Of a stretch of DNA of 64,000 nucleotides, positions 42,106-64,000 are shown one piece after another. The notes beneath the pieces are model-generated. The model did no database searches, was not told the origin of the DNA, and saw only the letters and a list, made by a program, of their open reading frames with translations. The stretch spans positions 544,001-608,000 of the forward strand of contig JBFWJS010000001.1 in assembly GCA_050253075.1 (NCBI GenBank). The letters are read 5' to 3'. Made by a program: the position numbers and the translations under genes. Numbering within the stretch: the first letter of the stretch is position 1; the number at the start of each line of letters is the position of its first letter. The DNA comes from Deferribacterales bacterium. GTDB lineage: Bacteria; Chrysiogenota; Deferribacteres; Deferribacterales; Geovibrionaceae.

Positions 42106-42128
42106 ATGAACGTATTTGTTATAGACGA
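42106..42128 (+). pseudogene. 5' stub of a response-regulator gene interrupted by the prophage
   Basis: GGAG RBS then MNVFVIDD (receiver beta1 + acidic pair); reading becomes unrelated and stops at 42186. Confidence 0.65.
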
Positions 42129-42175
42129 TGTCGAAGAGTACCATAATAAGAAGAGAAAACGTACTATAAACTTTT

Positions 42176-42215
42176 ACGGGATATGACGGGATAATGTGGG
42201 ATAAGATGGGATTTC
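42176..42215. repeat. Four GGGAT motifs at exact 10-bp spacing near the prophage end
   Basis: TACGGGATAT GACGGGATAA TGTGGGATAA GATGGGATTT. Confidence 0.75.
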
Positions 42216-42255
42216 CAAACATATTGAAAGAATAAGAAGGAACTATTTAAATCTC

Positions 42256-42612
42256 TTATTCGAGTTCGTCCTTCAGTGACAACGCATAGGAACTTCTATT
42301 GATGATAGCACGGATATGACTCTCTGAAAGACCAAACTCCTTAGCCAGATCTCTTTGATTAGAACCCGTAAACTTTTTCATGATCTGCCTATCTCTCTCT
42401 GGTCTAAACATCTGCTTTGTAGAATGAATGTAAATGTTCATGCCGCCAGTCTGAGAACCGACAACGAGTACAGAACGGACTGCGATCCTTTCGGCTGAAG
42501 ACTCGGAAATGCCTTCTTTGCAGGCGGCCGAAAAAATCGCCTCCGCAACTATTCTGGAATCTCCGGAGAGATCGTCAAGTTTTACTATCTGATCTTCAGG
42601 CTGCCACTTCAT
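42256..42612 (-). CDS. Mor/C family transcription activator
   Basis: GGMNIYI, RDRQIMKKFTGSNQRDLAKEFGLSESHIRAII. Confidence 0.88.
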   Translation of the reverse strand: MKWQPEDQIVKLDDLSGDSRIVAEAIFSAACKEGISESSAERIAVRSVLVVGSQTGGMNIYIHSTKQMFRPERDRQIMKKFTGSNQRDLAKEFGLSESHIRAIINRSSYALSLKDELE

Positions 42613-43385
42613 CAGTCTGACTCTCTCTGTAATTTGGCCGCAGTTTGGGCAACCTTTGCAAGCAGTACTGCAGAATGTGTTAAGCTGCCGTCAGGAGCAA
42701 TCAGCTTGTTGTGATTGAGATAAGCAAGCTCAGCTCGTGATACAAGTATCAGATTTTCAAGAGTGATGTTCTGTTTGTCTCCATCAGCAAATATGATTGC
42801 ATGGCCTTCGGGTATTTCGCCGTGCGCATTTTCCCATATCATACGGTGCTTATATTTCCATACATTAGGTTCGCTGATTTTAACTTTAAGATAGCCGTCT
42901 CTGTCAGTAATTTCTGTGCCGACCTCGACAGCATTTTTAGGACGGTTCCCTTTTTTGAATGATGTGCGATTAGCACCCATAAAACCTTTCTTGCCTTTAT
43001 CCCAGGGGATGTGTCCTTTTTTAAAACGAGTGTTACGGCCATTACATAGATGATTCACTGAACATATCCGTTTGATAGAGTCACGGCCGTGATCAGTCTT
43101 GAAGTGCTCATTAAACAATAATGTTAGTTCAGCAATACTACGACCAGTGATATTCTCTTTAAGGAAGTCTATATGCACAGCAAAAAACTTTTGATTAGGT
43201 GACTGCCCTCTGCGGTGTCCACGAGGGCAGTCATTTGTGAGTTCATGCCTTTTGCATGTACTCCTAATCTGGTCTACAGACAAGGCAAGCCCAAACTCAG
43301 AGTTAAATAACTCTGTCAGATCCTTATAGCTTATACCTTTGATATTCTGCTTTAAGAATGTAATATGAAAATTCATATACCTCAT
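42612..43385 (-). CDS. HNH endonuclease family protein
   Basis: KHRMIWE...FADGDKQNITLENL HNH_3-like motif; FKKG repeats; duplicated N-terminal helical unit. Confidence 0.82.
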   Translation of the reverse strand: MRYMNFHITFLKQNIKGISYKDLTELFNSEFGLALSVDQIRSTCKRHELTNDCPRGHRRGQSPNQKFFAVHIDFLKENITGRSIAELTLLFNEHFKTDHGRDSIKRICSVNHLCNGRNTRFKKGHIPWDKGKKGFMGANRTSFKKGNRPKNAVEVGTEITDRDGYLKVKISEPNVWKYKHRMIWENAHGEIPEGHAIIFADGDKQNITLENLILVSRAELAYLNHNKLIAPDGSLTHSAVLLAKVAQTAAKLQRESD

Positions 43386-43386
43386 C

Positions 43387-43641
43387 TTAATCTTGAGCCT
43401 CTATTGCAGTTTTACTGTTAAAGACATCGGGCATATCACCATATACTTCTCCTTTCTGAGCAGCTATGTGAGCTTTCAGCACTAAAGCATTATTTGCAAT
43501 AATTTGCTTTGATACGTCTGTAATAGCCTTTGCTCTGATAATCTCTGTTTTCAATTCATCTCCCGTGGTTTCTTCATCAGAGAGTCTTTCTAACTGTGCA
43601 AACAAGTGGTTTGTTAGGTCGATACTTTTGTTCTTTGGCAT
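43387..43641 (-). CDS. Conserved phage hypothetical protein
   Basis: AAGGAG RBS; LTNHLFAQLERLSDE...EIIRAKAI motif typical of small genes preceding such HNH genes. Confidence 0.75.
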   Translation of the reverse strand: MPKNKSIDLTNHLFAQLERLSDEETTGDELKTEIIRAKAITDVSKQIIANNALVLKAHIAAQKGEVYGDMPDVFNSKTAIEAQD

Positions 43642-43657
43642 TGTTGTCTCCTTATAT

Positions 43658-43720
43658 TGGTCTGCCTCATCAGTGCGGAGAGACCATTCTCCACAGACGC
43701 TCCATGCGGAGCGTTTCGGC
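43658..43720 (-). ncRNA. Hammerhead ribozyme, type II, with pseudoknot
   Basis: Minus strand GCC-GAAA-CGCUCC-GCAU-GGAGCG-UC-UGUGGAGA-AUGGUC-UCUCCGCA-CUGAUGA-GGC-AGACCA: all core nucleotides and stems I-III present. Confidence 0.9.
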
Positions 43721-43992
43721 TATGATTCGGTTGATTTTAATAGTGTGTCTTTTACAGAGTTGAATATGAACTCAGCAGCCTCCTCTGCTGCTTCTTGTGT
43801 AAATTCATCAAAGCATCTGCATAGCTCTTCTATGCCTTCATCAGAGTCGTTATAGTTAAAGCTAAAGCTAGCTCCTCCTAAACCTTCAGGCCTAACTTTA
43901 ACACTGATACTAGGTTCATCTTCATGATCCTCTTTCAGTACAAGGATCTGTCCATATTTCTCTGTCTCATATAGTTTTGCGAACTTGTCCAT
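43720..43992 (-). CDS. Phage hypothetical protein
   Basis: AAGGAG RBS, 90 aa, in early operon. Confidence 0.7.
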   Translation of the reverse strand: MDKFAKLYETEKYGQILVLKEDHEDEPSISVKVRPEGLGGASFSFNYNDSDEGIEELCRCFDEFTQEAAEEAAEFIFNSVKDTLLKSTES

Positions 43993-44002
43993 TCTCTACT
44001 CC

Positions 44003-44215
44003 TTATTTGATGAGTTCTTTTGTTTGTTTGATTACTGCTTCTTTCTCTTCATCTGTCAGTTTGTGGTTATTAACGACTGTTTCGATGATGAGACGATATT
44101 CTTTAATGACTTCTATTTTGCGTTTATCACTTAAGTTCAAGCTGTATAAACAAGAGCCCAAGGCTAAAAGCAGAAATACGAAAACGCCTACAATAACTAA
44201 AGTGGCTTCATTCAT
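44003..44215 (-). CDS. Small membrane hypothetical protein
   Basis: N-terminal TM helix, AAGGAG RBS, overlaps upstream gene end. Confidence 0.65.
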   Translation of the reverse strand: MNEATLVIVGVFVFLLLALGSCLYSLNLSDKRKIEVIKEYRLIIETVVNNHKLTDEEKEAVIKQTKELIK

Positions 44216-44741
44216 TGTCTACTCCTTTGTTCATGTTTGCTTTTTTCCAGTCTTTGAAAGACATGCCAGGGTTTTCACGTTTACAGTCCAGATATGGCTG
44301 CACATAATCTGAGATGTCTGATGTGGAGATCCCTGTCATTTGTTTCAGTTTTTCTATTACTTTCTGAGCGTCCCAGTCGAAGAATAACTGATTGTCTGTA
44401 AAGTCTATGAGTCCTTTATCGTGCTGTTTCTGCAGCCAGAGTTCGAAGCCGTTTTCGTATTTCCAGGGATACTGGTCTGCCAGAAACTGAATAAGACGGA
44501 GCTGGCTTTCTGAGATGCCGCCGCCTTGCTGTTTCTTCGGTCTATTCTTTGGTCTGCGCTTCATCTTGAAGCCTTTCTTTTTCAGCTCGTCTATGAGCTG
44601 AGTCGCCTGGAAGTATGTCAGTTCCTTTGAACTCTTCACTTTAAATCTGGCGAGCATGTCTCTGTATGTGTCCTCATCCATGCCGAGCTTCGTCTTTGCA
44701 ACGTGTATCAGCGTTATCTGCTTTGCTTCTATCATCCTCAT
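44208..44741 (-). CDS. GemA / Mu gp16 family protein (DUF1018)
   Basis: LIHVAKTKLGMDEDTYRDML...SSKELT; start moved to ATG 44741 behind GAGGT. Confidence 0.85.
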   Translation of the reverse strand: MRMIEAKQITLIHVAKTKLGMDEDTYRDMLARFKVKSSKELTYFQATQLIDELKKKGFKMKRRPKNRPKKQQGGGISESQLRLIQFLADQYPWKYENGFELWLQKQHDKGLIDFTDNQLFFDWDAQKVIEKLKQMTGISTSDISDYVQPYLDCKRENPGMSFKDWKKANMNKGVDNE

Positions 44742-44866
44742 GTGTACCTCTTTAAGCCCCTGCGCCCACAAAGGGGCACAGGGTTTGTTAAGGGGGGGAA
44801 ATGGCTGGGGGAAGTAAACCCCACTGGAGGCTCGACAAGCAAGCCGCCAGCGGGACACACATCCCG

Positions 44867-45484
44867 CTATTTGTCTTTAATATCTAGCTTCGCTATGTCC
44901 AGGCTGATAGCTTTCCATTCGCTTTCTGGTGTATCCCTCTCGTAGAATCTGATATAGTTCTTGCTGCCTGTTACAACGATGGAATCGCTGATGATATCCA
45001 TAGCCTTTTTCCACTCTGCCTCTTCTATCGCTAGGCGGCGGAGACCGAGAAGGCGGGACACGGATATTTTGCCTTCTTTGTCCACCTCAAAAGCATCCAT
45101 GACAACTACCTTCAGGTTTACGTTTGCTCCATCGCTCCATTCCTGAATCAGGTCGTCAATGATCGCTTTTGCAGCCTTCAGGCTTTCGTCAAATGTTATG
45201 TGTTCGCTAACCTGGATATTTACCTTCATACAGCCACAGTAGCTAAGTAGGCTGATATTGCCTTTCTTCCCTCCCAGCTCCACGCCGTGTTCGGCGGCGA
45301 TGAGATCAACGAAGTCGTTGACCTGATTTGTCGCCTCTGTCTTAAAATGCTGTAAGCCTGCCTGCTCGCACTTTGCATCTGCTATGAGCTTTTTCACAAG
45401 CTCGTCACGGAGCAGATCAGCAGGCTTTACCTTATCCGTTGGAACCATATGACCCTGTGCATTTGTTAAGAATCCGTCCATCAT
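44867..45484 (-). CDS. DUF3164 family phage protein
   Basis: NAQGHMVP...DLLRDELV, GGKKGNISLLSY, WKKAMDII...SKNYIRFYER. Confidence 0.85.
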   Translation of the reverse strand: MMDGFLTNAQGHMVPTDKVKPADLLRDELVKKLIADAKCEQAGLQHFKTEATNQVNDFVDLIAAEHGVELGGKKGNISLLSYCGCMKVNIQVSEHITFDESLKAAKAIIDDLIQEWSDGANVNLKVVVMDAFEVDKEGKISVSRLLGLRRLAIEEAEWKKAMDIISDSIVVTGSKNYIRFYERDTPESEWKAISLDIAKLDIKDK

Positions 45485-45693
45485 TCACCTCTGATGTTTT
45501 TATAGTATGTCCCAAGAGACTCTGCTCCCTGAGACCTGAACTCTTCCATAAGATCAAACACATCTATGCTGTCCACTAGCTGACTTGTTGCTTCTGTAAA
45601 ATCCATATAATCTTTTGCACTAAGTGCCAGTGTTCGCAGCTCTTCTTTTTGCTCTCTGATCTTCTTTTGCCTTTGTGTCGCTAGCCCTTCCAT
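45481..45693 (-). CDS. Phage hypothetical protein
   Basis: 70 aa, ATGA-coupled to downstream gene. Confidence 0.6.
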   Translation of the reverse strand: MEGLATQRQKKIREQKEELRTLALSAKDYMDFTEATSQLVDSIDVFDLMEEFRSQGAESLGTYYKNIRGE

Positions 45694-45701
45694 TTCTTCA
45701 C

Positions 45702-46892
45702 CTATGCCTTGAAGATAACGTCTGCGGTTACAAGCTCTTCGCCTATATTCGCTGCGAAGTTCATAGCCTTTGCCACAAGGTTATTAATAGTTAGAGGGTA
45801 TGTGTGATACTCAACGTCACCGAGCTTACCTCTTGATTTCAGCTTTCTATAGATAGCTTCATAGGCATCTTTGGCAAAGATAGTGGAGATGTTCTTACAG
45901 CCTACTCTGTTGAACTTGTGGATAAGATACTTCTCCACTTCTTCCTGTGTCATGCCTGTGATCTGAGCTTTATCCATACGGCGTGTAAGCTCTCTGAGGT
46001 CGTGTCGTTTATCTGATAGAGTGGTCTCCAGCTCTGGCTGCCCAAAGAAGACAACACCGCAAAGAGACTGAAAACCGTTCTTTAGCTCTGCGATCCTCTT
46101 CACAGACTTGAGAGCTTTGATGTTTAGCAGTTCTGCATCTTCGATGAATAAGACTTGCTGATATCCGGTTTCGCACCTGTTAGTAAGCAGCTGGATAGCC
46201 TGTCTGGATTTCTGCTCTCTTCGGATCTTCGGCTTTTCCTCCGGAGCTATGTCCATGATGATAGCATCCAGAAGAGACTCCGGTGTGATGCTGGACTTGT
46301 CCAGTATCTGAGGGAAGATCACCTTTATACCTTCGTCCTCCAGCTGCTCTGCTGCTGCCATGCGGATAGCGGATTTACCACAGCCGACTTCGCCATAGAC
46401 AGCGAACATGCCTTTATGATGTGCGGTTGAAAGGATCATCTCTTTTACGAATAGGTGATCCTCTGAATAGTAGATATCATCGACACTGTTTATGTCGCCT
46501 ACGAATGGATTTTTAAACAGCTTGAAATACTTCATTGTTCTCATGTTTATCATCTCTGCCTCCTCTGGCTCTGCTTCAAACTCTGCTGCTTTTTTCAGCT
46601 GAAATGGTTTCTTCCTCTCTTGTCCTGCTATGCGTCCTCTGCCGATCTTTCCGCTTTCCTCGTCATCCAGCCAGAGGTCTGCCATCGTGTACTCGTTTGT
46701 ATCCATCCACTCTGTGAGCTTTGGGTATACTTCAAAAGCCTTTGCTATTTTTTCGTCAAACTGCTCTCTCTTCGCAGGGAAGACTCCCTTCACAGCGAGA
46801 GATAAGGCCGCTGGGCTGAAGCCTGCTGTCTTTGATAACTGTGCCTGGCTGATACCGTTCTCACGAAGACATCGTTTCAGTAGTGCCTGCAT
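45702..46892 (-). CDS. Transposition AAA+ ATPase (MuB analogue, ExeA-like) with N-terminal HTH
   Basis: GEVGCGKS Walker A, LFIEDAE Walker B, FFGQPEL. Confidence 0.88.
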   Translation of the reverse strand: MQALLKRCLRENGISQAQLSKTAGFSPAALSLAVKGVFPAKREQFDEKIAKAFEVYPKLTEWMDTNEYTMADLWLDDEESGKIGRGRIAGQERKKPFQLKKAAEFEAEPEEAEMINMRTMKYFKLFKNPFVGDINSVDDIYYSEDHLFVKEMILSTAHHKGMFAVYGEVGCGKSAIRMAAAEQLEDEGIKVIFPQILDKSSITPESLLDAIIMDIAPEEKPKIRREQKSRQAIQLLTNRCETGYQQVLFIEDAELLNIKALKSVKRIAELKNGFQSLCGVVFFGQPELETTLSDKRHDLRELTRRMDKAQITGMTQEEVEKYLIHKFNRVGCKNISTIFAKDAYEAIYRKLKSRGKLGDVEYHTYPLTINNLVAKAMNFAANIGEELVTADVIFKA

Positions 46893-48534
46893 CTGTGTCT
46901 CCTCCTTCTGTTATTTCCCACACGATCTTCTCAGCTTCCTTCAGTGATACTGACGATCCATACTTGTCACGCAGTTCCTGATTCATACCCTTTGGTATAC
47001 TGCCGAGCTTTTTAGATATCCTGTCGAGTACATCAATTATGGGGATGCGCTTATCCTCCAGTGTCTCTATCTTTGCGAGCTCGTGTGCTGTGCCGTGTTT
47101 TGAAATGTATTCGGGAACATCTTCTGATCTGTTGCCCATGACTGTGAGACTGCCACCGAAAGGCAGGTCTCCTTTTTTTCTATTGTCTCCGTATGCGAGG
47201 TTTTCTGATATTGCTTCCTGCTTTTGCAGGTCTGACTCTGGCAGTGCTTTGTACTCCTGCCCGATGATCGGTGCATCCTCTCTGAACCCTGCTTCGTTCT
47301 TTGCTATTGGTTCGACAATGTATTCCTGATCGTTGAACACCACGCCGATCTTCGGCCAGTCGAATACACGCAGGACAACCTGTACCTTGCTCTTGCGTGG
47401 AATGATGCCTGGTATCATGCGCAGGTCGTAGTCCAGAGTGCGGAACGGGATAGCATAGTGAGCGTCAACTGTCCTAGGTACTTCCGGCTCACGAAAGAGA
47501 TCCTGAAGCAGCTTCCTCTCCGGAAGGTTGATAAGCTGCTCTGGCTTGATTGTCATCCAGAGTGAGTTTCTGCTCTGCTTTGTTCTGCGGTGTATGCGTT
47601 CTGAGTTTATGGAAATACACCAGTCTGTGACCCATGTGTTGATATCTTCCAGAGAGTGAGCCGGCTGCAGACGGAGCCCTGATTCGAAACTGCCTTCGAC
47701 AAAATTATGCATACGTTCCACAGCACCCTGTATCTGTGACTGGTACGGCGTTGACTTTGGAGTTTCGACATTCAGCCTCTTCAGCCAGCCCATGATAGTC
47801 TTGCTCATGTTCGCAGAGCCGTGGTCTCTCAGGAGCTGGGCAGGTACACCTCTGAATGGCAGCTTGCCGCTCTTTTCTTCCCATGCGGAGATGAGGAAGT
47901 CGAAAAGGTCTGCCTGTGTCTCACCGCTGCTGTAGTAATACTTTACGTAGATAGCCCCGCTGTAGTGGTCTACCAGGACATAGCGCAGCAGACGCTGCTT
48001 TATCTGTTTGAAGTTTTCGATCTTGTTTTTATATAAAGACTTCTCGTCTCTCAGTCCGATCTGTCCGTCTTTCAGGTAATACTGGATACAGACCGAGGAA
48101 TCCACAACATGAACGTGGTTCGGGTGCAGGCTTCTCATCTGGACTGCCGGCTTTGCTGTTCCCATTGTCTTTTTGTCCATTTGTCTGTCCTTTAGGATGC
48201 GGTTCAGAGTGCTTACGCTTACGCTTCCTTTTTCTATTACGCCGTTGTTTTCGGCTATGCGCAGAGCCTCATTCATGGGCATGTGTGCGCCTTTGTTCTC
48301 TCTGGATGTTGTCATCAGCAGAGAGTGCAGGAACTGTATCTGATGCTTATTCATAGTACACTTGCCTGCGTCTGTTCTCTTTTGTCTGCCGCTGGAGAAG
48401 CCGTTTGCACGGGCTCTGCGGTAGAGCGTTGATTCGCACAGACCCGTTGTTTTCTGATACGCTTTGATTATCTCTCTTCGGGCAGAGGGGGTATCAGCTT
48501 TTTGCAGTTTCTCTGCCAGTTCCCTTTCCCACAT
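46861..48534 (-). CDS. DDE transposase (MuA analogue, rve/integrase-core type)
   Basis: HPNHVHVVDSS, LVDHYSG, LRDHGSA, GAVERMH. Confidence 0.9.
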   Translation of the reverse strand: MWERELAEKLQKADTPSARREIIKAYQKTTGLCESTLYRRARANGFSSGRQKRTDAGKCTMNKHQIQFLHSLLMTTSRENKGAHMPMNEALRIAENNGVIEKGSVSVSTLNRILKDRQMDKKTMGTAKPAVQMRSLHPNHVHVVDSSVCIQYYLKDGQIGLRDEKSLYKNKIENFKQIKQRLLRYVLVDHYSGAIYVKYYYSSGETQADLFDFLISAWEEKSGKLPFRGVPAQLLRDHGSANMSKTIMGWLKRLNVETPKSTPYQSQIQGAVERMHNFVEGSFESGLRLQPAHSLEDINTWVTDWCISINSERIHRRTKQSRNSLWMTIKPEQLINLPERKLLQDLFREPEVPRTVDAHYAIPFRTLDYDLRMIPGIIPRKSKVQVVLRVFDWPKIGVVFNDQEYIVEPIAKNEAGFREDAPIIGQEYKALPESDLQKQEAISENLAYGDNRKKGDLPFGGSLTVMGNRSEDVPEYISKHGTAHELAKIETLEDKRIPIIDVLDRISKKLGSIPKGMNQELRDKYGSSVSLKEAEKIVWEITEGGDTDAGTTETMSS

Positions 48535-48536
48535 GC

Positions 48537-49565
48537 TTAATCCTTTGGTACTTTGTTATCGCACTTATATGTCTGAAAACCGTCACTGTAGAAATCTCTG
48601 CGTTCGCATGTGTCGCCTTTCTGGCATGTGTCGCACGGCAGCTCCGGCATGGCGTTGTCTGCTGCTGTGAAGCTGTCGCTGTATGCTGTGCCTTGCATCA
48701 CATCGTTAAAGATTTCTTCCAGATCTTTGACAACAGATATGTACTCTGCCTCCATCGTCGGTGTCATATCCTGTGGGAGATTGTGACGCTCCAGCTTTAT
48801 CAGCTGGCCCTTTGCGATTATCTTTATATTCTGTATATTACGAATAAATTTCTGCTCGTCTGCTGAGATGCCCAAAGCCTCTGCGGAGGCTTCATGCTTT
48901 GCCAGCTCGGATGCCATATCATCTATGGTTTTCTGCTTTGCAGAGATAACCTTTTGAGATGTTTTATTGAGCTGCTTTTCACGCTCTATTTGTTCGTCTT
49001 TCTTTTTCAGCAGGCCTTCCAGTGCTTCTTTTAACTCGTCTTTGTCGGTGAGGGGGATCTCTGTCTGGTCTCCGGATGCATCTATAATGATTCTGTCGTC
49101 TTGTATGGACAGTGTGCCTTCGGCTGCCTGACTGCGGAGCTGACGAAGCTCTCTATAACCAAGTCCAAAAGTGGCGACTGTCGCCAAAAACTCTTCGCCC
49201 AGAGCTTGTAGATTCTGTAAGTTTTCATCAGCCTGCCTACGTGAGATACCTATTGATTGACAGTAGTTTTCCCATGTTCCGATGCCTGGCATGTCTTTAT
49301 AGACTTTGTTTTCTTTGACTTTTTTTAGAAGCATAAAAGTGGCGACTGTCGCCACTTTTGAAATAAAACTGACTCCCTCTATGCGTCCAGTAAGTTTGAA
49401 TGCATCTGCTATCAGAGCCTCTCTCTCCTGCTGGTTTACAGGCTGAAGGGCTTGCTCCTCCATAACCTCTTCGGCTACTACTTCTTCTGCCGCTGCGAGG
49501 TCTAGCTCTGCTCTGTCGGCTGCTGCCTGTGTTTCATCTATTGTTTCTTTCTTTTTCCCTGCCAT
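48537..49565 (-). CDS. Phage HTH/coiled-coil protein (DUF3102-like)
   Basis: TWENYCQSIGISRRQADENL HTH-like segment, coiled coil, GGAGG RBS. Confidence 0.7.
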   Translation of the reverse strand: MAGKKKETIDETQAAADRAELDLAAAEEVVAEEVMEEQALQPVNQQEREALIADAFKLTGRIEGVSFISKVATVATFMLLKKVKENKVYKDMPGIGTWENYCQSIGISRRQADENLQNLQALGEEFLATVATFGLGYRELRQLRSQAAEGTLSIQDDRIIIDASGDQTEIPLTDKDELKEALEGLLKKKDEQIEREKQLNKTSQKVISAKQKTIDDMASELAKHEASAEALGISADEQKFIRNIQNIKIIAKGQLIKLERHNLPQDMTPTMEAEYISVVKDLEEIFNDVMQGTAYSDSFTAADNAMPELPCDTCQKGDTCERRDFYSDGFQTYKCDNKVPKD

Positions 49566-49590
49566 TTCTTCCTCCTGTCCTCGGCATCTG

Positions 49591-49599
49591 TGTTATAAT
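49591..49599 (+). promoter_or_regulatory. Extended -10 promoter
   Basis: TG-T-TATAAT, followed by GAGGTG RBS and ATG 49617. Confidence 0.65.
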
Positions 49600-49616
49600 C
49601 AGATCAGAGGTGACAT

Positions 49617-49829
49617 ATGCTTAGTGATCAATCTGTTGAATTCGCTTGTGGAAATTGCAACCATAAGCTCCATGTAAAAATGAAGGACATGAAGCCTGGT
49701 GGAAGTATTACTTGCCCGTCCTGTGGAGCTATTACTAACTTTACGGGAGATGACATATCAAAGCCCGTTGCCCAGTTTGATAAAGCCATCTCTGATATCC
49801 AGAAGGCTTTCAAAAAGTTTGGTAAATAA
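49617..49829 (+). CDS. Small zinc-ribbon protein, opposite to early operon
   Basis: CGNC and CPSC pairs; own promoter and RBS. Confidence 0.72.
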   Translation: MLSDQSVEFACGNCNHKLHVKMKDMKPGGSITCPSCGAITNFTGDDISKPVAQFDKAISDIQKAFKKFGK

Positions 49830-49976
49830 CTCTTCGGCCTCTTGGCTGAGTGTTGCTACCTGCTCTTTTGATTCTATACGGTTGATTACTTTTGCGGTGC
49901 TCTGTATTGCTATGATCAGGTCTTGCTTTGCTCCTTCGTTTACGAGGAGCTCTATCTGTAATTCTCTCTTTGCCAT
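49758..49976 (-). CDS. Phage hypothetical protein
   Basis: AAGGAG RBS, 72 aa. Confidence 0.55.
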   Translation of the reverse strand: MAKRELQIELLVNEGAKQDLIIAIQSTAKVINRIESKEQVATLSQEAEELFTKLFESLLDIRDGFIKLGNGL

Positions 49977-49986
49977 CTTTATCTCC

Positions 49987-50187
49987 TTACATTAAGACGT
50001 AGACTTTCTGGTCTTCGTCATAGGTGTATTCATATGTGCCTTCAGATGTTTTAAAAACTATGTAGTCGTAGGGTACACAGTCGTCTCCGATATATGGTTT
50101 CGCATCTGCTGCATACTCTGACAGCATCGCCATCTGATTTGGGGTGTATGTGTCTCTTGGTAGAGTGCTGTATAATCCTTTGCTCAT
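49987..50187 (-). CDS. Phage hypothetical protein
   Basis: 66 aa, tightly packed in early operon. Confidence 0.55.
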   Translation of the reverse strand: MSKGLYSTLPRDTYTPNQMAMLSEYAADAKPYIGDDCVPYDYIVFKTSEGTYEYTYDEDQKVYVLM

Positions 50188-50188
50188 G

Positions 50189-50446
50189 TTATGGCCCCAG
50201 TCTATTAAGAGTGAGTTGTCTGTTTCGCCACTCTGCGAGAGACTTTGTCTGCTCTGCCTCTTCGGGAGTGAGCAGGACGCCAGACGGCCTTACGTTGTCG
50301 GTGAAGACTTCGCAGTATTCTGCTGTGCAGTAGAACGCTGATGAAGATCCGTCTGAAGATTTAAGGAATTGCTTAGCCTCGCTGCGGCATGAGCCACAGC
50401 AGTCGAATATGAGCTCATGCTTTGTCTTTGGCAGATCCTTTCTCAT
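50189..50446 (-). CDS. Phage hypothetical protein
   Basis: 85 aa, Cys-containing, ATGA-coupled. Confidence 0.55.
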   Translation of the reverse strand: MRKDLPKTKHELIFDCCGSCRSEAKQFLKSSDGSSSAFYCTAEYCEVFTDNVRPSGVLLTPEEAEQTKSLAEWRNRQLTLNRLGP

Positions 50447-51150
50447 AGCTCGTCTTCCTTATTAAAAAAGGATGTGGGCTTGCCGCACTTTGGGCAGTAT
50501 GGATCATCTGCCAGACCTATTGCGGTGTGTCCGCAATTGTTGCATTCCTGATGACACTGACGGAGATCCCCGCCACATGTGCGGCAAAATCTATCTGTGG
50601 TGTCTTTCACTGGCTCTTTGCATGACTTGCATGTGTGGGCTGTAGTTGTGTCTTCCTGCTTTTCTGGCTCGGCTTCATCAAAGAATCTTTCAGATATGTC
50701 ACAACCTGACCATAGAGGATATGTGCGACAATCGAACCAGACAGAGCCTGATCTGAAATCCTCTGGCCAGAGTGTGCGCATGGCTTCTGATTTACCATAC
50801 TGCTTTGCAGGTTCGGTGAAAACAATACGATCTTTTAATGAGAGAGGAAACTGTCTGAGAAACGCTAACTGATAAGAGCCCAGACCTCTCTCTGCTCTCT
50901 TGATAGACTCTAAGGCAGCAAATGCTGTGGCTGCTGCCTGAACGAGTTCTCTTTCCGCATCGGCAATGGTTTCGGCTTTTTCTATCTTATGACAGATGCC
51001 CTCTATGATGAGTCCCCATTGGTTCATTGAGTGGGTGTCATCGTGGTCTGAGCCGCCCCATTTCGTGTCTTGTCTCTGGCGTTCTGCTTCGACAAGTTTG
51101 AATATCTGATGCATATCATCAGTCATCGGTATGAAGTGTTTCTTAGTCAT
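50443..51150 (-). CDS. Phage protein: MazG-like helical N-terminus plus double zinc ribbon
   Basis: ERQRQDTKWG...ELVQAAA; four CxxC pairs at C-terminus. Confidence 0.65.
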   Translation of the reverse strand: MTKKHFIPMTDDMHQIFKLVEAERQRQDTKWGGSDHDDTHSMNQWGLIIEGICHKIEKAETIADAERELVQAAATAFAALESIKRAERGLGSYQLAFLRQFPLSLKDRIVFTEPAKQYGKSEAMRTLWPEDFRSGSVWFDCRTYPLWSGCDISERFFDEAEPEKQEDTTTAHTCKSCKEPVKDTTDRFCRTCGGDLRQCHQECNNCGHTAIGLADDPYCPKCGKPTSFFNKEDEL

Positions 51151-51436
51151 TGCCTAGCTCCTGATTTATGTTTGTCTGTGCTGCCTGTAGCTTTGCTTTA
51201 CGGCGTGCATAAAGCATTGTTACCGCCTGACCTAGCTCCCACTGACCACCGACAGAACGGACGTATTTCCTGCTCTCCATTGTGACGAGGTAGTTCTTTG
51301 CTGAGGTGTATGTGATATCCATCTCGTCTGCTATTGCCTGTGTGCCCACAGGCTGTTTCTGCAGACTGAGCATGTCGAGGATATCCAGAGCCTTAGCCAC
51401 AGTGGATAATTCTGTGTATCCGCCCACTTTAGCCAT
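51143..51436 (-). CDS. IclR-type winged-HTH protein
   Basis: STVAKALDILDML...IADEMDITYTSAKNYLVTM...WELG. Confidence 0.75.
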   Translation of the reverse strand: MAKVGGYTELSTVAKALDILDMLSLQKQPVGTQAIADEMDITYTSAKNYLVTMESRKYVRSVGGQWELGQAVTMLYARRKAKLQAAQTNINQELGND

Positions 51437-51923
51437 TGTTCTGCTCCTGCATCTTCATCTGGAGTCTGCGCTTTCTGGCAGATTCTCTGACACTGTGGGC
51501 AGCGTTGATCAGCTCGTTTGCCTCACGCTCTATCTGCTCCAGTTCTTCTACGGTGTAGACTCCGTCCATGCGAGCCTCTGCATCTGCGCTTATGACATCG
51601 CTAGCTTCACGCATCATCTTTGCCACGTTTACCTGCAGGCTTTCCTGTGATGGTTTTTGCTCGGTATCCAGGACGACACGGCCGCCTATTTTGGATGCCA
51701 TCCAGTCCACCATTATTGTGTTGCCCAGACCTTCGCACAGTAGCGGGATGTTACGAGCTGATGGGTCGTATTCCGGATCAGTGAACATTCTTTGTAGCGT
51801 GCTGCTCGGTATGCCGGAGCTGATAGCCAGGTCTTTGAATGTGGCAGGGCTCATTGCTTTTGCGAATTCCTTTGCCTGCTGGAATGAGATTTCTCTCAGA
51901 TCAGGCATTCTGTTAAGTGTCAT
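51429..51923 (-). CDS. Phage regulatory CII-like protein
   Basis: N-terminal HTH; C-terminal EASDVI...DGVYTVEELEQI. Confidence 0.7.
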   Translation of the reverse strand: MTLNRMPDLREISFQQAKEFAKAMSPATFKDLAISSGIPSSTLQRMFTDPEYDPSARNIPLLCEGLGNTIMVDWMASKIGGRVVLDTEQKPSQESLQVNVAKMMREASDVISADAEARMDGVYTVEELEQIEREANELINAAHSVRESARKRRLQMKMQEQNNG

Positions 51924-52047
51924 ATTAGTTGTCTCCTATATTGTTCCTATCCCTGCAAATTACTAGGATTGAAAGAATCCTCCCCATGTGCTTCAATCAT
52001 GGGGAGGCAAACCCAGGAGTGTTTCAGGAGGGAAAGGGTATTATGTT

Positions 52048-52245
52048 TCATTTGATGCCGAGCAGTTCTTTGGCTGCTGCTTCGATGCGGTCTGAGTCTA
52101 TCTTGCCGTTAAAAAACTGGCTGACAGAAGCACCCGTTACTTCTGCTTTTTCGGCGATTTGTGTTTGTGTGATTTTTTTACGTCGGCGGATTTTGTCTAA
52201 TTCGTTACGTTTAGTGAGTTTTTCGATTGCTAGATCAATGTGCAT
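52048..52245 (-). CDS. Ner/Cro-like HTH protein
   Basis: ITQTQIAEKAEVTGASVSQFFNG; first gene of leftward operon. Confidence 0.8.
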   Translation of the reverse strand: MHIDLAIEKLTKRNELDKIRRRKKITQTQIAEKAEVTGASVSQFFNGKIDSDRIEAAAKELLGIK

Positions 52246-52285
52246 TATGATAACCTCAAGTAGTTTTTAAGTAATAAGTAACTAA

Positions 52286-52338
52286 ATAATACATCAAAAT
52301 GAGGTAATGTCAAATATTAACTTTATCATTTCGAGGTA
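52286..52338. promoter_or_regulatory. Immunity-region early promoter and operators
   Basis: Minus-strand TTGACA (52313-52308)-16bp-TATTAT; imperfect palindromes TACATCAAAATGAGGTA (52290-52306) and TTTATCATTTCGAGGTA (52322-52338). Confidence 0.6.
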
Positions 52339-52359
52339 TTGTTTGCGGTGTAAATGTAA

Positions 52360-52785
52360 ATGTTTGGAGCACAACTGAAAAAGATAAGAAAAGAGTTAGA
52401 GCTTTCACAAACTCAATTTGGTGAACGACTTGGAAAAGGTTTGGCAACAATACAAAGATGGGAAGCACTAGAGGAACCGCCAAAGGATTCTATAATAAAT
52501 CTCATATGTAGTGTTTTTGGTATTAGTGAAACATGGTTGAAAACAGGCACAGGTAACATGTATGGCTCATATTCAAATAACCAAAGCATACAAAAGAATT
52601 ACGGAATACAGATACAAAATAATGGTAACATAACCCATTTTGGAACGCCTACAAACCCTATGACAGAGGGCGTTGAGAAAGACGTTAAGGAACTGTTTGA
52701 AATGATTTTAGAATATGGTACCCCAAAAATCATCAAACAGTTTAAGTCAAAAATGGAAGCTATTAAAAAACTTCATGAGGAGTAG
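52360..52785 (+). CDS. XRE-family prophage repressor
   Basis: LKKIRKELELSQTQFGERLG...WLKTGTGNM; divergent from Ner-like gene. Confidence 0.85.
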   Translation: MFGAQLKKIRKELELSQTQFGERLGKGLATIQRWEALEEPPKDSIINLICSVFGISETWLKTGTGNMYGSYSNNQSIQKNYGIQIQNNGNITHFGTPTNPMTEGVEKDVKELFEMILEYGTPKIIKQFKSKMEAIKKLHEE

Positions 52786-52790
52786 AACCA

Positions 52791-53852
52791 ATGGATACAA
52801 TATATGGAATTATCTTTTGGGCAATAATTATCTATTATTTTTATAACCGAAGAAAAAAGAAAAAGATGTCTGAAAATGTAAATGTTAAAACACCTGTCAG
52901 AAAGGAAAACTCTGAGAATAATATAGTTCATCAGGTGGATAATATAGATGGGGTGGTAGTACAGAAGACGAGGATGCCAGAAGATATTGCACACTTACTT
53001 TGGTTCTCTAATGGTAAATATAAGAATTATGATCCTGACTCTGTTGGGAACACTATCGATACAGGTCTTGGTATTTCTTTTAAAGCATACATGAATACAG
53101 ATATAGAACCGAGTCTGATAGACATTACACTTCCAATAAAGAAGCCGCATGACCTCATGTTTGTTGAAGCATTAGGCTATTGGCCAAGATATGAAAACCT
53201 TAACCCTGAGCAAAGATGGGTTTACCTTAGCTGGCTTCAGAATATTGAAATTTCAGTTGATATAGGCTATGTATTTTTATTTTATTACGGTCTTGAAAGA
53301 CATCTGTTCTTAGGAGATATAGACGCAGCATTTGATATGATACTACGGCTGAATGCTAATCATAATAATAATTCATTCCATAGCTACTCAACCAATGCTT
53401 TGCTTGGCGCAATACTATATCACAAGCGTTCTGATCTGCTTGAAAAGTTTCTGCTCAGTACATCAAATTTCGTTATTTCAGAGCTTTACTTATTCGTTAA
53501 GCTTTTATTAGATAAACCACTTCTCGCAGAAGAAATAATAGCATTGTCAAGCAAAGTGGGCTTTACGAATAAAAGATATATAAAATCTGACTATGAATTA
53601 TTTATAAAAATATTAAAGAAAGAGATTCTGGAGCAAACTGGATCTGAGAATTTATCTTGGCAGAATTTAGATATTGATCAATGCCCAATGATAAAAACAA
53701 CACTTACTGCTAACCAGTCGATATCTCCACGTGAGATATCAATACCAGATGTTATGCAAGATTATAGATATAAAACATTAGTAAATAAGTTATTAAAATC
53801 TACGCATGAAAAAGTGAAAGTTGAATTGAGAGAGCTTAGAAAAAAGGTGTGA
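52791..53852 (+). CDS. TerB N-terminal domain protein (accessory/moron)
   Basis: YWPRYENLNPEQRWVYLSWL...DIGYVFLFYYGLERHL; N-terminal TM; AT-rich. Confidence 0.78.
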   Translation: MDTIYGIIFWAIIIYYFYNRRKKKKMSENVNVKTPVRKENSENNIVHQVDNIDGVVVQKTRMPEDIAHLLWFSNGKYKNYDPDSVGNTIDTGLGISFKAYMNTDIEPSLIDITLPIKKPHDLMFVEALGYWPRYENLNPEQRWVYLSWLQNIEISVDIGYVFLFYYGLERHLFLGDIDAAFDMILRLNANHNNNSFHSYSTNALLGAILYHKRSDLLEKFLLSTSNFVISELYLFVKLLLDKPLLAEEIIALSSKVGFTNKRYIKSDYELFIKILKKEILEQTGSENLSWQNLDIDQCPMIKTTLTANQSISPREISIPDVMQDYRYKTLVNKLLKSTHEKVKVELRELRKKV

Positions 53853-54094
53853 GCTCTCATGTGTTGACACCTATCTTATATCTGTATATTCTGAGACACT
53901 CCAAACATAAACCCCTTAACTTATTATAATTTCTTCAAACTCCCCGTAGTGTAATAATCAACCATATTGCCTAATGTGACTCTTAAGCCAATCGGAATTT
54001 GCCATCCGTGGAAATTCCGACATGCGCTCGCACCACACAAGTGTGGTTTCGCTGCGCACGGCGAAACAGCATCATGCTGTTTTAGGAGACACAC

Positions 54095-54559
54095 ATGGCA
54101 AGACTTTCAAACATAATCATACACTGCAGCGACAGCACATTTGGCTCTGCTGCTATTATACGTCAATGGCATCTGCAACGTGGCTGGAGAGACATCGGCT
54201 ATCACTTTGTGATCTGTAACGGCAAGATCGCACCTGATCTCTTTATTCCTGAGATGGACGGTAGTATCGAAACCGGCAGACCGCTGGACGGCGATCACTT
54301 CATCACTGGTGATGAAGTGGGCGCACATGCGCTTGGGTATAACTCTAACTCTATCGGCATCTGCAATATCGGTGTCAGATCATTTTCTCTTAATCAAATG
54401 GCATCTCTGCATGACCTGCTTTTCAGGCTCATGGACAAATTCGACATACCTATAGAAAACATTCTCGGACATTACGAGACAGCGCAGGCACACGGCAAAA
54501 CATGCCCGAACTTTGATGTCTCTGAGCTCCGTGAGTTTATGAAATCATACAGACCGTAG
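54095..54559 (+). CDS. Endolysin, N-acetylmuramoyl-L-alanine amidase (Amidase_2, T7-lysozyme-like)
   Basis: IIIHCS, GWRDIGYHFVI, GAHALGYN, GH...KTCPNF. Confidence 0.92.
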   Translation: MARLSNIIIHCSDSTFGSAAIIRQWHLQRGWRDIGYHFVICNGKIAPDLFIPEMDGSIETGRPLDGDHFITGDEVGAHALGYNSNSIGICNIGVRSFSLNQMASLHDLLFRLMDKFDIPIENILGHYETAQAHGKTCPNFDVSELREFMKSYRP

Positions 54560-54568
54560 GAGGTATTG

Positions 54569-54997
54569 ATGAAGATATTAAGATCTATTTTTCTCGTCCT
54601 GCTGCTTGCTTTTGCGGCGGTGGGCTGTACGGCTGACCCTGTGGTGGCAGACTCTGTGGGCAATATCCTGAGCGGATATGTATTCCCTGCGCTGGCATCT
54701 CTGGGCGGTGTCTTGGCACTGATGGCTATGCAGCAGTTCCAAAAGAAGACGGGCATACAGCTGAAGAAAGAGCAGATGCAGTATGTGCAGAACATGGCAG
54801 AGGAAGCTGTGCTCTATGTGACGGAGATAGCGGCCCAGAAGGCTAAGTATTCTGTCAAGCTCCACGCTGGCGAAAAGAAACAGATGGCTATGACAAAGCT
54901 GGTATCTGCTGTACCAACGCTGTCTAAGACAGAGGCAGACGAAGCTATACACGCTGCACTGGCACGCATAGGCGAAGGAGCATCGGCAGTATCATGA
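54569..54997 (+). CDS. Putative holin-like membrane protein with lipobox (ORF track start 54566)
   Basis: Follows endolysin; AVGC lipobox, TM helix, LL-H-holin-like AEEAVLYV...GEKK tail. Confidence 0.5.
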   Translation: MKILRSIFLVLLLAFAAVGCTADPVVADSVGNILSGYVFPALASLGGVLALMAMQQFQKKTGIQLKKEQMQYVQNMAEEAVLYVTEIAAQKAKYSVKLHAGEKKQMAMTKLVSAVPTLSKTEADEAIHAALARIGEGASAVS

Positions 54998-55119
54998 CAC
55001 TGCTAGCGATTGTTCAGCTGGTGTCGGCAGTGCTGCCACTGGCTATGAAAGGGATAAGATCCGTGCAGGCTAAACGCAAGTCTGCACGGGTGATACGTGA
55101 GATCAGGGGTGAGGTATGA
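54994..55119 (+). CDS. 41-aa hydrophobic/cationic peptide (not in ORF track)
   Basis: MTLLAIVQLVSAVLPLAMKGIRSVQAKRKSARVIREIRGEV; ATGA overlaps at both ends. Confidence 0.6.
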   Translation: MTLLAIVQLVSAVLPLAMKGIRSVQAKRKSARVIREIRGEV

Positions 55120-55478
55120 CACCGGAACAGATAGCTGCTTTTTCCGCCATTGCTACACTTCTGGAAAGAATAGGTACATGGCCAGTGGGTACATTGATTG
55201 TTGTGATGCTTATTTCACCCTGGGCGATTCTGGTCTGGGTGACTATTACCCAGCGTAAGCAGCTGGACGAGTTTGTAAAATCTGCAAACACACAGTCAGC
55301 GCAGTTTAAACAGATGTATGAGAACAATGCAGAGCTTGTGAAAGGCTTTCTGCGTCTGAGCACTGACCTGCACGACACCGTGGTCCTGAACATAAGGGAG
55401 CTGACAGAGATGAAAGACATAGCAAAGAATAACCAAATCTGCCCACTGGTGCGTGAGCAAGGGAGAATGAAGCCATGA
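55116..55478 (+). CDS. Phage membrane protein
   Basis: One TM helix plus coiled coil, between lysis and packaging genes. Confidence 0.65.
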   Translation: MTPEQIAAFSAIATLLERIGTWPVGTLIVVMLISPWAILVWVTITQRKQLDEFVKSANTQSAQFKQMYENNAELVKGFLRLSTDLHDTVVLNIRELTEMKDIAKNNQICPLVREQGRMKP

Positions 55479-55723
55479 GCAGTAATAGACTGATCATGCA
55501 GGGGAAGCTGCAGGAGCTGAAAGAACAGCGCAGAAAGCTGACTCTGCGGGCTGACAGCCTTATGGAGTCTATCACTGCTGACCTGACTCTGTATGAGGTG
55601 ACGAAGCTGGTTGATATAGATACTGAACGTGTGAGGGTGCTAAGCACTGAGCTGGACGAGATCAAGCAAGAAGTGCTGGAGCTGGACACACATATACAAA
55701 AGCTGAGGGATGAACTTGGGTGA
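55475..55723 (+). CDS. Phage coiled-coil hypothetical protein
   Basis: 82 aa, ATGA-coupled. Confidence 0.65.
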   Translation: MSSNRLIMQGKLQELKEQRRKLTLRADSLMESITADLTLYEVTKLVDIDTERVRVLSTELDEIKQEVLELDTHIQKLRDELG

Positions 55724-56240
55724 GCATAGCAAACGCCGCAGCAGCATAGAGAGCGAGCTGCCCGAAAACATCCGCAAGGAACTGCGGCGCCGACTGGTGG
55801 AAGATAACGAGACCTATGACGATATCACCGCATGGCTGAACGCTGAAGGGTATGACATAAGCCGCTCTGCTGTGGGACGATACGGTAAAACCTTCTTTGA
55901 CATTGTTAAAGATATGAAGGTGATAGAAGAGCAGTCCGCAACGCTGGTGGGTGATGAGGCAAGCAGCATGGTTCTGGAGGAAGCAACGACTAAGCTGATC
56001 CTGAACAAGCTGATGCAGATGCTGATGACAGATGATGTGGATCTGAAGAAAAGCACAAGGATCATGACCGACCTGGCGAACCTGCAGAAGTCGAACGTGA
56101 GCAGGGAAAAGCTGAAGATAGAGATCAGAGACAGAGCGAAGGCTGTCGCTGAAAAAGTGGCAGGAATAGCTAAGAAGAAAGGTCTGACACCGGACACAGT
56201 TGCGAGGATCAAGAAAGAGATCCTGGGCATTAGTAAATAA
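55710..56240 (+). CDS. Mu gp27-like protein (DUF3486; putative terminase small subunit)
   Basis: RRSSIESELP...GYDISRSAVGRY...GLTPDTVARIKKEILGI. Confidence 0.85.
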   Translation: MNLGEHSKRRSSIESELPENIRKELRRRLVEDNETYDDITAWLNAEGYDISRSAVGRYGKTFFDIVKDMKVIEEQSATLVGDEASSMVLEEATTKLILNKLMQMLMTDDVDLKKSTRIMTDLANLQKSNVSREKLKIEIRDRAKAVAEKVAGIAKKKGLTPDTVARIKKEILGISK

Positions 56241-56253
56241 CACAGGGAAATCC

Positions 56254-57771
56254 ATGAAAGCAGTTATGGCTGAAAGCACTGACAAACACATAAAGCCGAT
56301 ACAGACAGTTACCGCAAGTAACGGTGATGATATCCGCATCCTTCTGAAATATCAGGCTGACTGGTGTGCTGATCTGGCTGATGTGAAGTTTCTGGAAAAG
56401 TCCAGACGTATCGGCGGGACATTCGGAGAGATACTGGATGACTGTCTGACTGCTGCCGGAGAGATCGGAGACGATATCTGGTACATCGGATACAACAAAG
56501 AGATGGCGCAAGAGTTCATACGTGCGGCAGCTGAGTTTGTCCGTGTGCTGCACAATGAGCTGGTTGATATAGATGAAGAGATAATAGAAGACGAAAACAA
56601 AGATATCCTGACCTATGTGATCAAGCTGGCTAGTGGACACAGAGTGTCTGCTCTGTCCTCTGCTCCGTCTAACCTGAGAGGTAAGCAAGGGATCATCGTA
56701 ATAGATGAAGCTGCTTTCCATGAAGACCTCGAAGAGGTGCTGAAGGCTGCCCTGGCTATGCTGATCTGGGGCGGAAAGGTCAGAGTCATCAGCACCCATA
56801 ACGGTATAGACAACACCTTTGCAATATACATCAAAGATATCAAAGAAGGCAGGCTGCCATATAGCCTGCACACAGTAACATTCAGAGATGCTATCGCTGA
56901 TGGGCTCTATAAACGTATCTGTCTGGTGAGCGGAAAGGAATACTCACCGGAAGCGGAAGATGCGTTTGTAGAATCTATCTATCAACAATACGGCGAAGCG
57001 GCGGATGAAGAGCTGGACTGTATACCTAAGAAGTCCGGCAAGAGCTACTTCAACAGTGCTGTTGTGGAAAACAACCTGGATAAGGGCATCCCTTATCTGG
57101 AATTTGGGAAGCCTGACGAATGGAAGCTGCTTGACCCTGATGTCCGCAGAGCTGAGATCACTGAGTGGTGTGAGGAAAATCTGACTCCGCTGCTGGAGAT
57201 GTACGACAAGGAGACAGTGTGGTTCGGAGAGGACTTCGCACGTAATGGTGATGCAACTATCTTTGACCCTTGCTTCGATGATGGAGACAACTTTACAAGC
57301 ATGTTCCTGCTGGAGCTTCGCAATATCCCGTTCGCAGATCAGGAGACATTTCTCTTCTTTATCCTTGACCGTGTAAACCTCGGCGGGGCTGCACTGGACG
57401 CTACAGGTAACGGTGCCCAGATAGCAGAGAACACTGCACTGCGCTATGGAGTAGACCGTGTGCATGAGATCAAGCTGAATCAAAAGTGGTATCAGGAAAA
57501 TGTGCCACGCTATAAGACACGCCTGGAAGACGGCACTATACGCATGGCTGACAATCAGGCTGTGCGTGATGACCACAGGGTGTGGGTGTCGGCGAATGGT
57601 GTGCCGACTATCGGTAAGAGAATCAACTCAAAAGGTAAGAAACACCACGGCGATATCGTCATAGCAAAGGTTATGGCTGTGTATGCCAGAAACAATATAG
57701 AGGTGCTGGAGACAGAAGTGATGTCTGCAGCAAAGAGAGAAGGATACAGGGAGGCCGCCTATTATGGCTGA
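56254..57771 (+). CDS. Terminase large subunit (Mu gp28-like); start uncertain (56254 or 56266)
   Basis: EKSRRIGGT, IDEAAFH, ISTHNG, GEDFAR, DATGNG, HGD. Confidence 0.92.
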   Translation: MKAVMAESTDKHIKPIQTVTASNGDDIRILLKYQADWCADLADVKFLEKSRRIGGTFGEILDDCLTAAGEIGDDIWYIGYNKEMAQEFIRAAAEFVRVLHNELVDIDEEIIEDENKDILTYVIKLASGHRVSALSSAPSNLRGKQGIIVIDEAAFHEDLEEVLKAALAMLIWGGKVRVISTHNGIDNTFAIYIKDIKEGRLPYSLHTVTFRDAIADGLYKRICLVSGKEYSPEAEDAFVESIYQQYGEAADEELDCIPKKSGKSYFNSAVVENNLDKGIPYLEFGKPDEWKLLDPDVRRAEITEWCEENLTPLLEMYDKETVWFGEDFARNGDATIFDPCFDDGDNFTSMFLLELRNIPFADQETFLFFILDRVNLGGAALDATGNGAQIAENTALRYGVDRVHEIKLNQKWYQENVPRYKTRLEDGTIRMADNQAVRDDHRVWVSANGVPTIGKRINSKGKKHHGDIVIAKVMAVYARNNIEVLETEVMSAAKREGYREAAYYG

Positions 57772-59275: not shown

Positions 59276-59387
59276 GGCGTTTTAACGCATTAAATATATG
59301 AAACAGCCGAATGTGCGTATTTAGCACAAACGGCCGGATAAGGGCATTTATAAACGTTTTTAAACGCATATATAAGCGAGGTTTCGA

Positions 59388-60635: not shown

Positions 60636-60754
60636 ACCCGATGTGATCCAGCCATCGGGAGGCAACACCCTTGCTGATTGCCGCCACTGGTCTGACGGTC
60701 AGGGTACGCTACCTGATTTAAATATAGTTGAAAGACTTTGAGAGGTCAAGAGAT

Positions 60755-61609: not shown

Positions 61610-61612
61610 AAG

Positions 61613-61969: not shown

Positions 61970-61974
61970 AAAAG

Positions 61975-62952: not shown

Positions 62953-62965
62953 ATAGGAGGGGAGT

Positions 62966-63397: not shown

Positions 63398-63398
63398 T

Positions 63399-63902: not shown

Positions 63903-64000
63903 TGAATAGTGCAGCACTCTTTGAGTATCTGAAATCTGTCTTTGTTGATTGCGGAGTGGACGCTGTGAATGTTCATGATGCTCACAAGACCAACATCCTG
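63902..64000 (+). CDS. Partial phage gene running off the window
   Basis: TAATG coupling; open frame MNSAALFEYLKSVF... to window end. Confidence 0.5.
   Translation, partial: MNSAALFEYLKSVFVDCGVDAVNVHDAHKTNIL

Follow-up and report, generated by a model that had tools for sequence, protein, structure and literature searches.

Type II hammerhead ribozymes with the kind of pseudoknot considered here have been described in prophages, where they flank genes of inconstant identity and where a role in the processing of long transcripts was proposed (Perreault 2011, PMC3088659). In the same study, tandem hammerheads flank ardA in Agrobacterium tumefaciens, and clusters occur in Clostridium scindens and Azorhizobium caulinodans. 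Three clusters of prophage type II hammerheads cleave in vitro and one in vivo; fast cleavage needs the pseudoknot, and 4 of the 18 consensus hammerheads assayed were inactive. Hammerhead cleavage leaves a 2',3'-cyclic phosphate and a 5'-OH, and the role that self-cleaving ribozymes play in bacteria and phages is still open (Weinberg 2019, PMC6765202). Our search of the literature, in which few subscription journals were covered, found nothing beyond Perreault 2011 that ties hammerheads to genes for HNH nucleases, to Mu-like phages or to the recombination of cassettes.

The window, that is, the whole stretch of 64,000 nucleotides analysed here, carries a single ribozyme of this type, inside the early operon of a transposable prophage. 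It is real, well-formed and ordinary in kind, and belongs to a class known since 2011. We describe its anatomy and surroundings, its distribution among related phage loci, and the explanations that can be given for its position.

Anatomy of the ribozyme and of the B3-type prophage around it

The Rfam model Hammerhead_II (RF02276) matched positions 43656-43721 of the minus strand with 63.6 bits, against a gathering cut-off of 37 (E 7.6e-11 in the window), and the model was covered end to end (positions 1-66 of 66). The 3.04-Mb genome gave no other RF02276 match, and none of the 14 control genomes contained one. Our own descriptor, run over the whole genome, returned two matches: the motif at 43658..43720 and a long AT-rich one without Rfam support. 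The freshwater-2 RNA (RF02980) was rejected as a reading of the site, with 27.2 bits against a gathering cut-off of 49.9 (E 0.045).

The core agrees with the consensus C3 U4 G5 A6 N7 G8 A9 / G12 A13 A14 A15 / U16 H17, as defined in the methods of Perreault 2011 (PMC3088659). Three helices surround it, stems I and III closed by loops and stem II open, with no mismatch next to the core; the pseudoknot between loop I and the 3' tail, for which at least 4 pairs are expected, can form 5. By core, helices, score and pseudoknot the element is a type II hammerhead of family RF02276, and its cleavage is predicted. The arrangement of clustered hammerheads, in which two or more flank a gene or block, is absent, with one match in the window and in the genome.

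The preliminary description had read here a complete type II hammerhead with CUGAUGA and GAAA core strands, a GUC triplet with a predicted cut between 43696 and 43695, a 6-bp stem III and a 3-bp open stem II, and had suggested a search with the Rfam hammerhead models; the search and the letters themselves bear this out. Its 8-bp stem I and its pairing of the tail GACCA with the loop UGGUC are also present in the sequence, with a correction of length: '7-8 bp' and '4-5 bp' are fairer, because among 36 aligned homologues the innermost stem I pair forms in 19 and the fifth pseudoknot pair in 20.

In the same alignment 91.9% of the cells pair, compared with 33.5-41.6% in slid controls; because the search pattern already constrained part of the core and of stem II, the alignment is uninformative for those parts. 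For the pseudoknot, 83.2% of the cells are paired, and three of the five pairs show changes on both sides. The folding energy of the ribozyme is unremarkable (z -1.58; 15 of 200 shuffles were equally good). The predicted minimum fold, from a model without pseudoknots, contains stems I and III and places the 3' strand of stem II in a 4-bp helix with the start-codon region. This predicted preference of the nearest-neighbour fold for another small helix over stem II counts against the explanation that we favour below.

Table 1. Ribozyme, early operon and prophage features (window numbering)
Feature	Position	Strand	Basis
B3-type transposable prophage, 33.3 kb, TG 42129 to CA 75460	42129..64000 in window		ends, marker genes
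Candidate early promoter, ~8.6 kb upstream; sigma-70-like site with the best match, 11 of 12	52286..52313	minus	consensus match only
Transposase	46861-48534	minus	domain/PHROG matches
MuB-like ATPase	45702-46892	minus	domain/PHROG matches
DUF3164	44867-45484	minus	domain/PHROG matches
GemA	44208-44858	minus	domain/PHROG matches
Upstream 90-aa gene, phrog_9037; stop codon overlaps stem II	43720..43992	minus	ORF, PHROG
Type II hammerhead ribozyme, pseudoknotted between loop I and 3' tail	43658..43720	minus	Rfam RF02276, sequence, covariation
Open stem II, 3 bp	5' GCC 43720-43718 / GGC 43666-43664	minus	sequence, Rfam
Core strand GAAA	43717-43714	minus	sequence
Stem III hairpin, CGCUCC 43713-43708 / GGAGCG 43703-43698, 6 bp + core A-U pair	43698..43713	minus	sequence, fold, covariation
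Predicted cut, after GUC 43698-43696	between 43696 and 43695	minus	sequence
Stem I hairpin, 43695-43688 / 43681-43674, loop 43687-43682	43674..43695	minus	sequence, fold
Core strand CUGAUGA	43673-43667	minus	sequence, Rfam
3' tail GACCA, complement of loop I UGGUC (43682-43686); pseudoknot	43658..43662	minus	sequence, covariation
Shine-Dalgarno-like AAGGAG of small gene, outside ribozyme	43648..43653	minus	sequence
84-aa small gene, phrog_2044	43387..43641	minus	PHROG
257-aa HNH endonuclease (HNH_3; phrog_1891)	42612..43385	minus	domain/PHROG matches
Mor-family transcription activator, final gene of early operon	42256..42612	minus	domain/PHROG matches

The early operon runs leftward in the order transposase, MuB-like ATPase, DUF3164, GemA, a 70-aa ORF, phrog_9037, ribozyme, phrog_2044 (the small gene), HNH (phrog_1891) and Mor. 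The ribozyme lies on the coding strand and occupies the 78-nt gap from the stop codon to the next start. It had been described as starting in the stop codon of the gene at 43720 and ending about 5 nt before the ribosome binding site (RBS), and the sequence agrees: the 5' G of stem II is the last base of the TAG of ORF 43720-43992, AAGGAG begins 5 nt after the ribozyme tail, and the ATG of the small gene is at 43641. The orientation of the genes suggests that the early transcript crosses the ribozyme. Sigma-70-like sites on the minus strand were not above chance (9 found, 13.9 expected in shuffles).

A second CUGAUGA, at 42611-42617 of the minus strand, falls on the overlap of the HNH stop and the Mor start and was considered as a degenerate second ribozyme. 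The scan at the gathering cut-off and the descriptor were both empty there, and we attribute it to chance; the Rfam scan at E <= 1 covered 43400-44000. Elsewhere in the window, a SAM riboswitch (RF00162, 67.6 bits) is located at 7225-7334 of the plus strand.

The prophage has the transposase, ATPase, GemA and Mor/C markers, the TG...CA ends and the 6-bp target duplication of the B3 type; its CA end lies 11.5 kb past the window edge. It is inserted in a gene for a CheY-like receiver that immediately follows cheA. This gene, part of a chemotaxis operon, is broken at codon 7-8 (42108-42129 and 75460 onward), and the lysogen may be without the function of this CheY-like regulator.

A blastn search for close relatives of the prophage gave no match among 50,697 phage records. 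Among 100 related genomes, three contained a gene for DUF3164 (39-45% identity), and no type II hammerhead was found in the 7-kb stretches around these three genes. RF02276 matches were obtained in 2 of 60 related genomes. A same-family genome with a Mu-like early region (locus L508, G009:C1:87000-97000) has hammerheads at 4738 and 6838, both after Mor; L508 is possibly a defective prophage, its region soon giving way to host genes.

Distribution of the ribozyme and of the small-gene/HNH pair

Phage loci selected by DUF3164 were compared (80 fetched; 75 distinct after removal of 5 duplicates). A type II hammerhead is present in 21 of the 75, in every case on the coding strand and downstream of DUF3164, with none on the opposite strand. 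The ribozyme is dispensable, because the fetched stretch of the other 54 loci is without one. Mor was detected downstream in 55 loci; the ribozyme stands between DUF3164 and Mor in 20 of these, and 35 have none there. Counted by gene junctions in the 55 loci, there are 22 ribozymes at about 227 DUF3164-to-Mor junctions and none at about 354 junctions upstream; the gene calls are rough, and the Fisher p of 5e-10 is overstated, kin not being independent. The distance from ribozyme to Mor ranges from 666 to 3284 nt.

The small gene was followed separately through 242 fetched loci, with 208 distinct contexts among the 238 that had enough upstream DNA. An HNH gene like that of the window follows it in 205 of the 214 loci with enough downstream DNA; phrog_2044 and phrog_1891 make up a nearly invariant pair, which occurs in many phyla and in phages of many types. 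By the descriptor, only 6 of the 242 loci have a type II hammerhead, at no more than 60 nt from the small gene in L002, L139 and L154, at 252 nt in L109, and at 1153 nt in L041 and L124, which have the same sequence. Mu-like markers, which 13 of the loci have, accompany each of the six, and the other loci gave 0 of 229. A check of 20 loci with Rfam bore out the descriptor every time, for 8 positives and 12 negatives.

The reverse search gave a similar picture. Scans with ribozyme patterns reached at least 255 viral loci; of the matches listed, 223 pass the descriptor, and one of these, L488, has the small gene. The co-occurrence of ribozyme and HNH in related prophages, which the preliminary description had proposed to check, is not observed as a rule in either direction. 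Direct adjacency of ribozyme and small gene is found in the window, L002, L139, L154 and L488; among the 13 Mu-like small-gene loci it occurs in 3, which is not above the base rate (P = 0.12). The ribozyme goes with this region of the early operon of such phages, not with the HNH gene.

The gap upstream of the small gene is 30 nt or less in 138 of 204 distinct contexts. Other ribozyme classes were not found upstream of it in about 20 loci scanned with all of Rfam. The stem III pattern of the window ribozyme occurs in 120 viral loci, 100 of them valid by descriptor; in the three stem III-pattern loci that have the small gene, the gene lies about 1.4 kb away and there is no type II layout. In three gut-phage loci (L601, L623 and L646, near 2000) the same stem III and GUC are followed by a short hairpin and an RBS, with no CUGANGA downstream; these are probably another hammerhead permutation. 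In the Mu-like locus L530, which is without ribozyme, HNH and small gene stand in swapped order. PHROGs labels phrog_2044 'RNA polymerase beta subunit'. The model of the small protein is a short helical hairpin (pLDDT 76.7) with no match in the PDB at E <= 0.001, and neither the model nor the search supports this label; the protein may be a partner or an inhibitor of the nuclease.

The layout seen in the window, from stop codon through ribozyme to start codon, is common to most of the phage type II hammerheads sampled. In a survey of 307 unique ribozymes among the matches listed, an ORF ends within 6 nt before the GAAA in 211 of 298 hammerheads, compared with 6.7% of random positions, and a Shine-Dalgarno-like site and start codon follow within 45 nt in 240 of 302, compared with 19.8%. 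The control consisted of 4400 random positions, mostly in coding DNA, and shows intergenic placement mainly; the tight packing is in part that of any compact intergenic element.

The ORF after the ribozyme has a median length of 92 aa. When 150 of 247 such genes were scanned, 93 were without PHROG hit, no family was represented more than five times, and one was an HNH gene; two anti-restriction genes are among those that follow the sampled ribozymes. Type II hammerheads also occur outside the Mu-like phages: among the matches listed, 46 of the 138 ribozyme loci of at least 3 kb have a Mu marker by tblastn. Some phage contigs (L283-L286, L392-L393, L300 and L431-L433) contain 3 to 12 type II hammerheads in about 5 kb, before almost every small gene.

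A probable self-cutting spacer and the alternatives

The explanation that we favour, and consider probable, is that the ribozyme works as a self-cutting spacer within the accessory (SEE) stretch of the early operon and lets the two halves of the message turn over and be translated independently. Once transcribed, it would cut co-transcriptionally after the GUC at 43696, with a 2',3'-cyclic phosphate left on the upstream side and a 5'-OH on the downstream side. The early mRNA of about 10 kb would be separated into an upstream piece, from transposase to phrog_9037, with the stem III hairpin as its 3' end, and a downstream piece of about 1.4 kb, with the small gene, HNH and Mor, whose 5' end would be the stem I hairpin with no unpaired base. 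Terminal hairpins protect RNA ends. Both new ends would be expected to resist end-dependent decay, so that the halves could acquire independent turnover and translation, and the benefit would be generic to whatever genes follow the ribozyme. As part of the same explanation, the small-gene/HNH pair is probably a separately mobile module that stands behind the ribozyme here by happenstance.

This explanation draws on the RF02276 match with its intact core, on the covariation, which extends to the pseudoknot, on the shared layout, on the variety of the genes that follow, on the 21 of 75 loci with a ribozyme, always in the coding orientation, and on the cleavage of other prophage hammerheads (Perreault 2011). 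In E. coli a 5'-OH slows end-dependent decay (bioRxiv 2020.07.22.216051). Against the explanation stand the 54 of 75 related loci with no ribozyme in the fetched stretch and the 4 inactive hammerheads among the 18 assayed. By analogy with glmS (Weinberg 2019, PMC6765202), the effect of cleavage could instead be destabilising. A ribosome that halts at the TAG, which overlaps stem II, would occlude this stem together with GAAA and might delay folding. Unmasking of the RBS by cleavage was considered and rejected: the predicted mean unpaired probability of AAGGAG is 0.77 before and 0.80 after.

It is also possible, though we advance it tentatively, that the ribozyme DNA serves as a conserved junction for the gain and loss of accessory genes, recombination at or between copies adding or removing a unit of stop codon, ribozyme, RBS and gene. 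In the Desulfovibrio prophage L154 the small gene and HNH are flanked by two hammerhead copies, which form an exact 62-bp repeat (1149-1210 and 2243-2304) that starts directly behind the stop codon and stops directly ahead of the RBS. The unit between the repeats is 1094 bp long and has a GC of 0.40, compared with 0.58 in the flanks. Three viral contigs (L590, L591 and L592) have the flanks of L154 at 98-99.5%, with one ribozyme (near 2929) and no unit. A ribozyme can therefore be the border of a gene indel; this is one event, and the low GC of the insert suggests that it was a gain.

Among the matches listed, 7 of 80 neighbouring ribozyme pairs, L154 included, are at least 90% identical, compared with 0.4% of 1500 random pairs; the other 73 pairs, however, are below 90%. 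Identity among the four HNH proteins whose genes adjoin a ribozyme is only 36-43%, and they form no group on a tree of 179 tips with weak support, which suggests separate arrivals of their genes.

Applied to the window, this would mean that the small-gene/HNH pair came in the same way, and that the second ribozyme copy was lost or never formed. Such an origin is compatible with the self-cutting spacer. Against it, the window unit has a single ribozyme copy and no GC step (0.40, and 0.41 upstream), the adjacency in Mu-like loci does not exceed its base rate, and no close relative of the prophage, in which an empty site could be sought, was found among the 50,697 phage records and 100 related genomes. 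One ribozyme copy cannot excise a gene as circular RNA. With somewhat less confidence still, it may be proposed that transposable phages have, in their accessory early region, a natural system of gene cassettes whose junctions are type II hammerheads, acting as insulators in RNA and as crossover points in DNA, and that the small-gene/HNH pair entered this slot several times, in one case (L154 compared with L590-L592) with a visible exact duplication of the ribozyme, possibly driven by HNH cutting the empty allele.

The preliminary description had suggested that cleavage could set the timing of late-gene activation. Its position fits: in the window Mor is on the piece that would be released, and the 22 ribozymes of the 55 Mu-like loci are all placed in the interval from DUF3164 to Mor, with none upstream, although these loci include kin that are not independent. 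We nevertheless think it unlikely that cleavage specifically sets the level or timing of Mor, and hence late transcription. The interval from DUF3164 to Mor is the variable SEE region anyway, as B3-type phages are described in PMC8705779; most of these loci have no ribozyme there, and where there is one its spacing to Mor varies about fivefold, as given above. Both ribozymes of L508 come after Mor, 92 of the 138 loci of at least 3 kb, among the matches listed, have no Mu marker, and access to the RBS is predicted to be unchanged by cleavage.

Less probable again is that the window ribozyme is an inactive relic or a neutral passenger: it is absent from most relatives, but it scores 63.6 bits with no core position or helix impaired, and the prophage ends and target duplication are intact as well.

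The least credible reading, which we regard as very improbable, takes ribozyme, small gene and HNH for one selfish mobile (homing) element, as the mobile ribozyme-HNH cassette of the preliminary description would have it: the five cases of direct adjacency and the L154 indel speak for it, but in 236 of the 242 small-gene loci a descriptor that Rfam backed wherever checked finds no type II hammerhead, HNH follows the small gene all the same, the six positives are confined to the 13 Mu-like loci, and the ribozyme-adjacent copies are not one group, so that as a general unit the element is largely refuted and the cassette survives in L154 only.

Comparison with known systems

The window copy brings no new chemistry. 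It offers a clean case, in which a single ribozyme lies upstream of a late-gene activator and the prophage ends are intact, so that one core mutation could tell if cleavage matters. More use can be made of the comparison of loci than of this copy: about one quarter of the sampled B3/Mu-like early operons have a ribozyme, in the variable region only, and in one pair of filled and empty alleles a gene indel has the ribozyme as its exact border.

RiboJ and other engineered ribozyme insulators cleave themselves just upstream of an RBS and leave a defined 5'-OH end with a hairpin. The window ribozyme differs in being natural and intercistronic, and in having a type II topology that would cap both products; the analogy is one of function, not of family. 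The glmS ribozyme shares self-cleavage upstream of a bacterial coding sequence (PMC6765202), whereas it has another fold, depends on a ligand and is destabilising; the window ribozyme has no evident ligand site.

With the B3-type prophages described in PMC8705779 the host prophage shares the TG...CA ends, the 6-bp duplication, transposase, ATPase, GemA and Mor, divergent arms and variable small genes. At 33.3 kb it is shorter than the 36-39 kb given there. Ribozymes are unmentioned in the passages of that source on B3-type prophages, whereas here they occur in 21 of the 75 related loci.

The closest comparison is with the hammerheads of Perreault 2011 (PMC3088659). The window has a single copy instead of a cluster, and its neighbours phrog_2044, HNH and Mor are not among the genes named in the main-text passages on these hammerheads. 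The tandem and clustered cases of A. tumefaciens, C. scindens and A. caulinodans demonstrably cleave, whereas the window copy is unpaired and its cleavage predicted. As in those three cases, the ribozyme lies among phage accessory genes, and its class is the same: open stem II, stems I and III closed by hairpin loops, the same core and pseudoknot, and an intergenic position among prophage genes.
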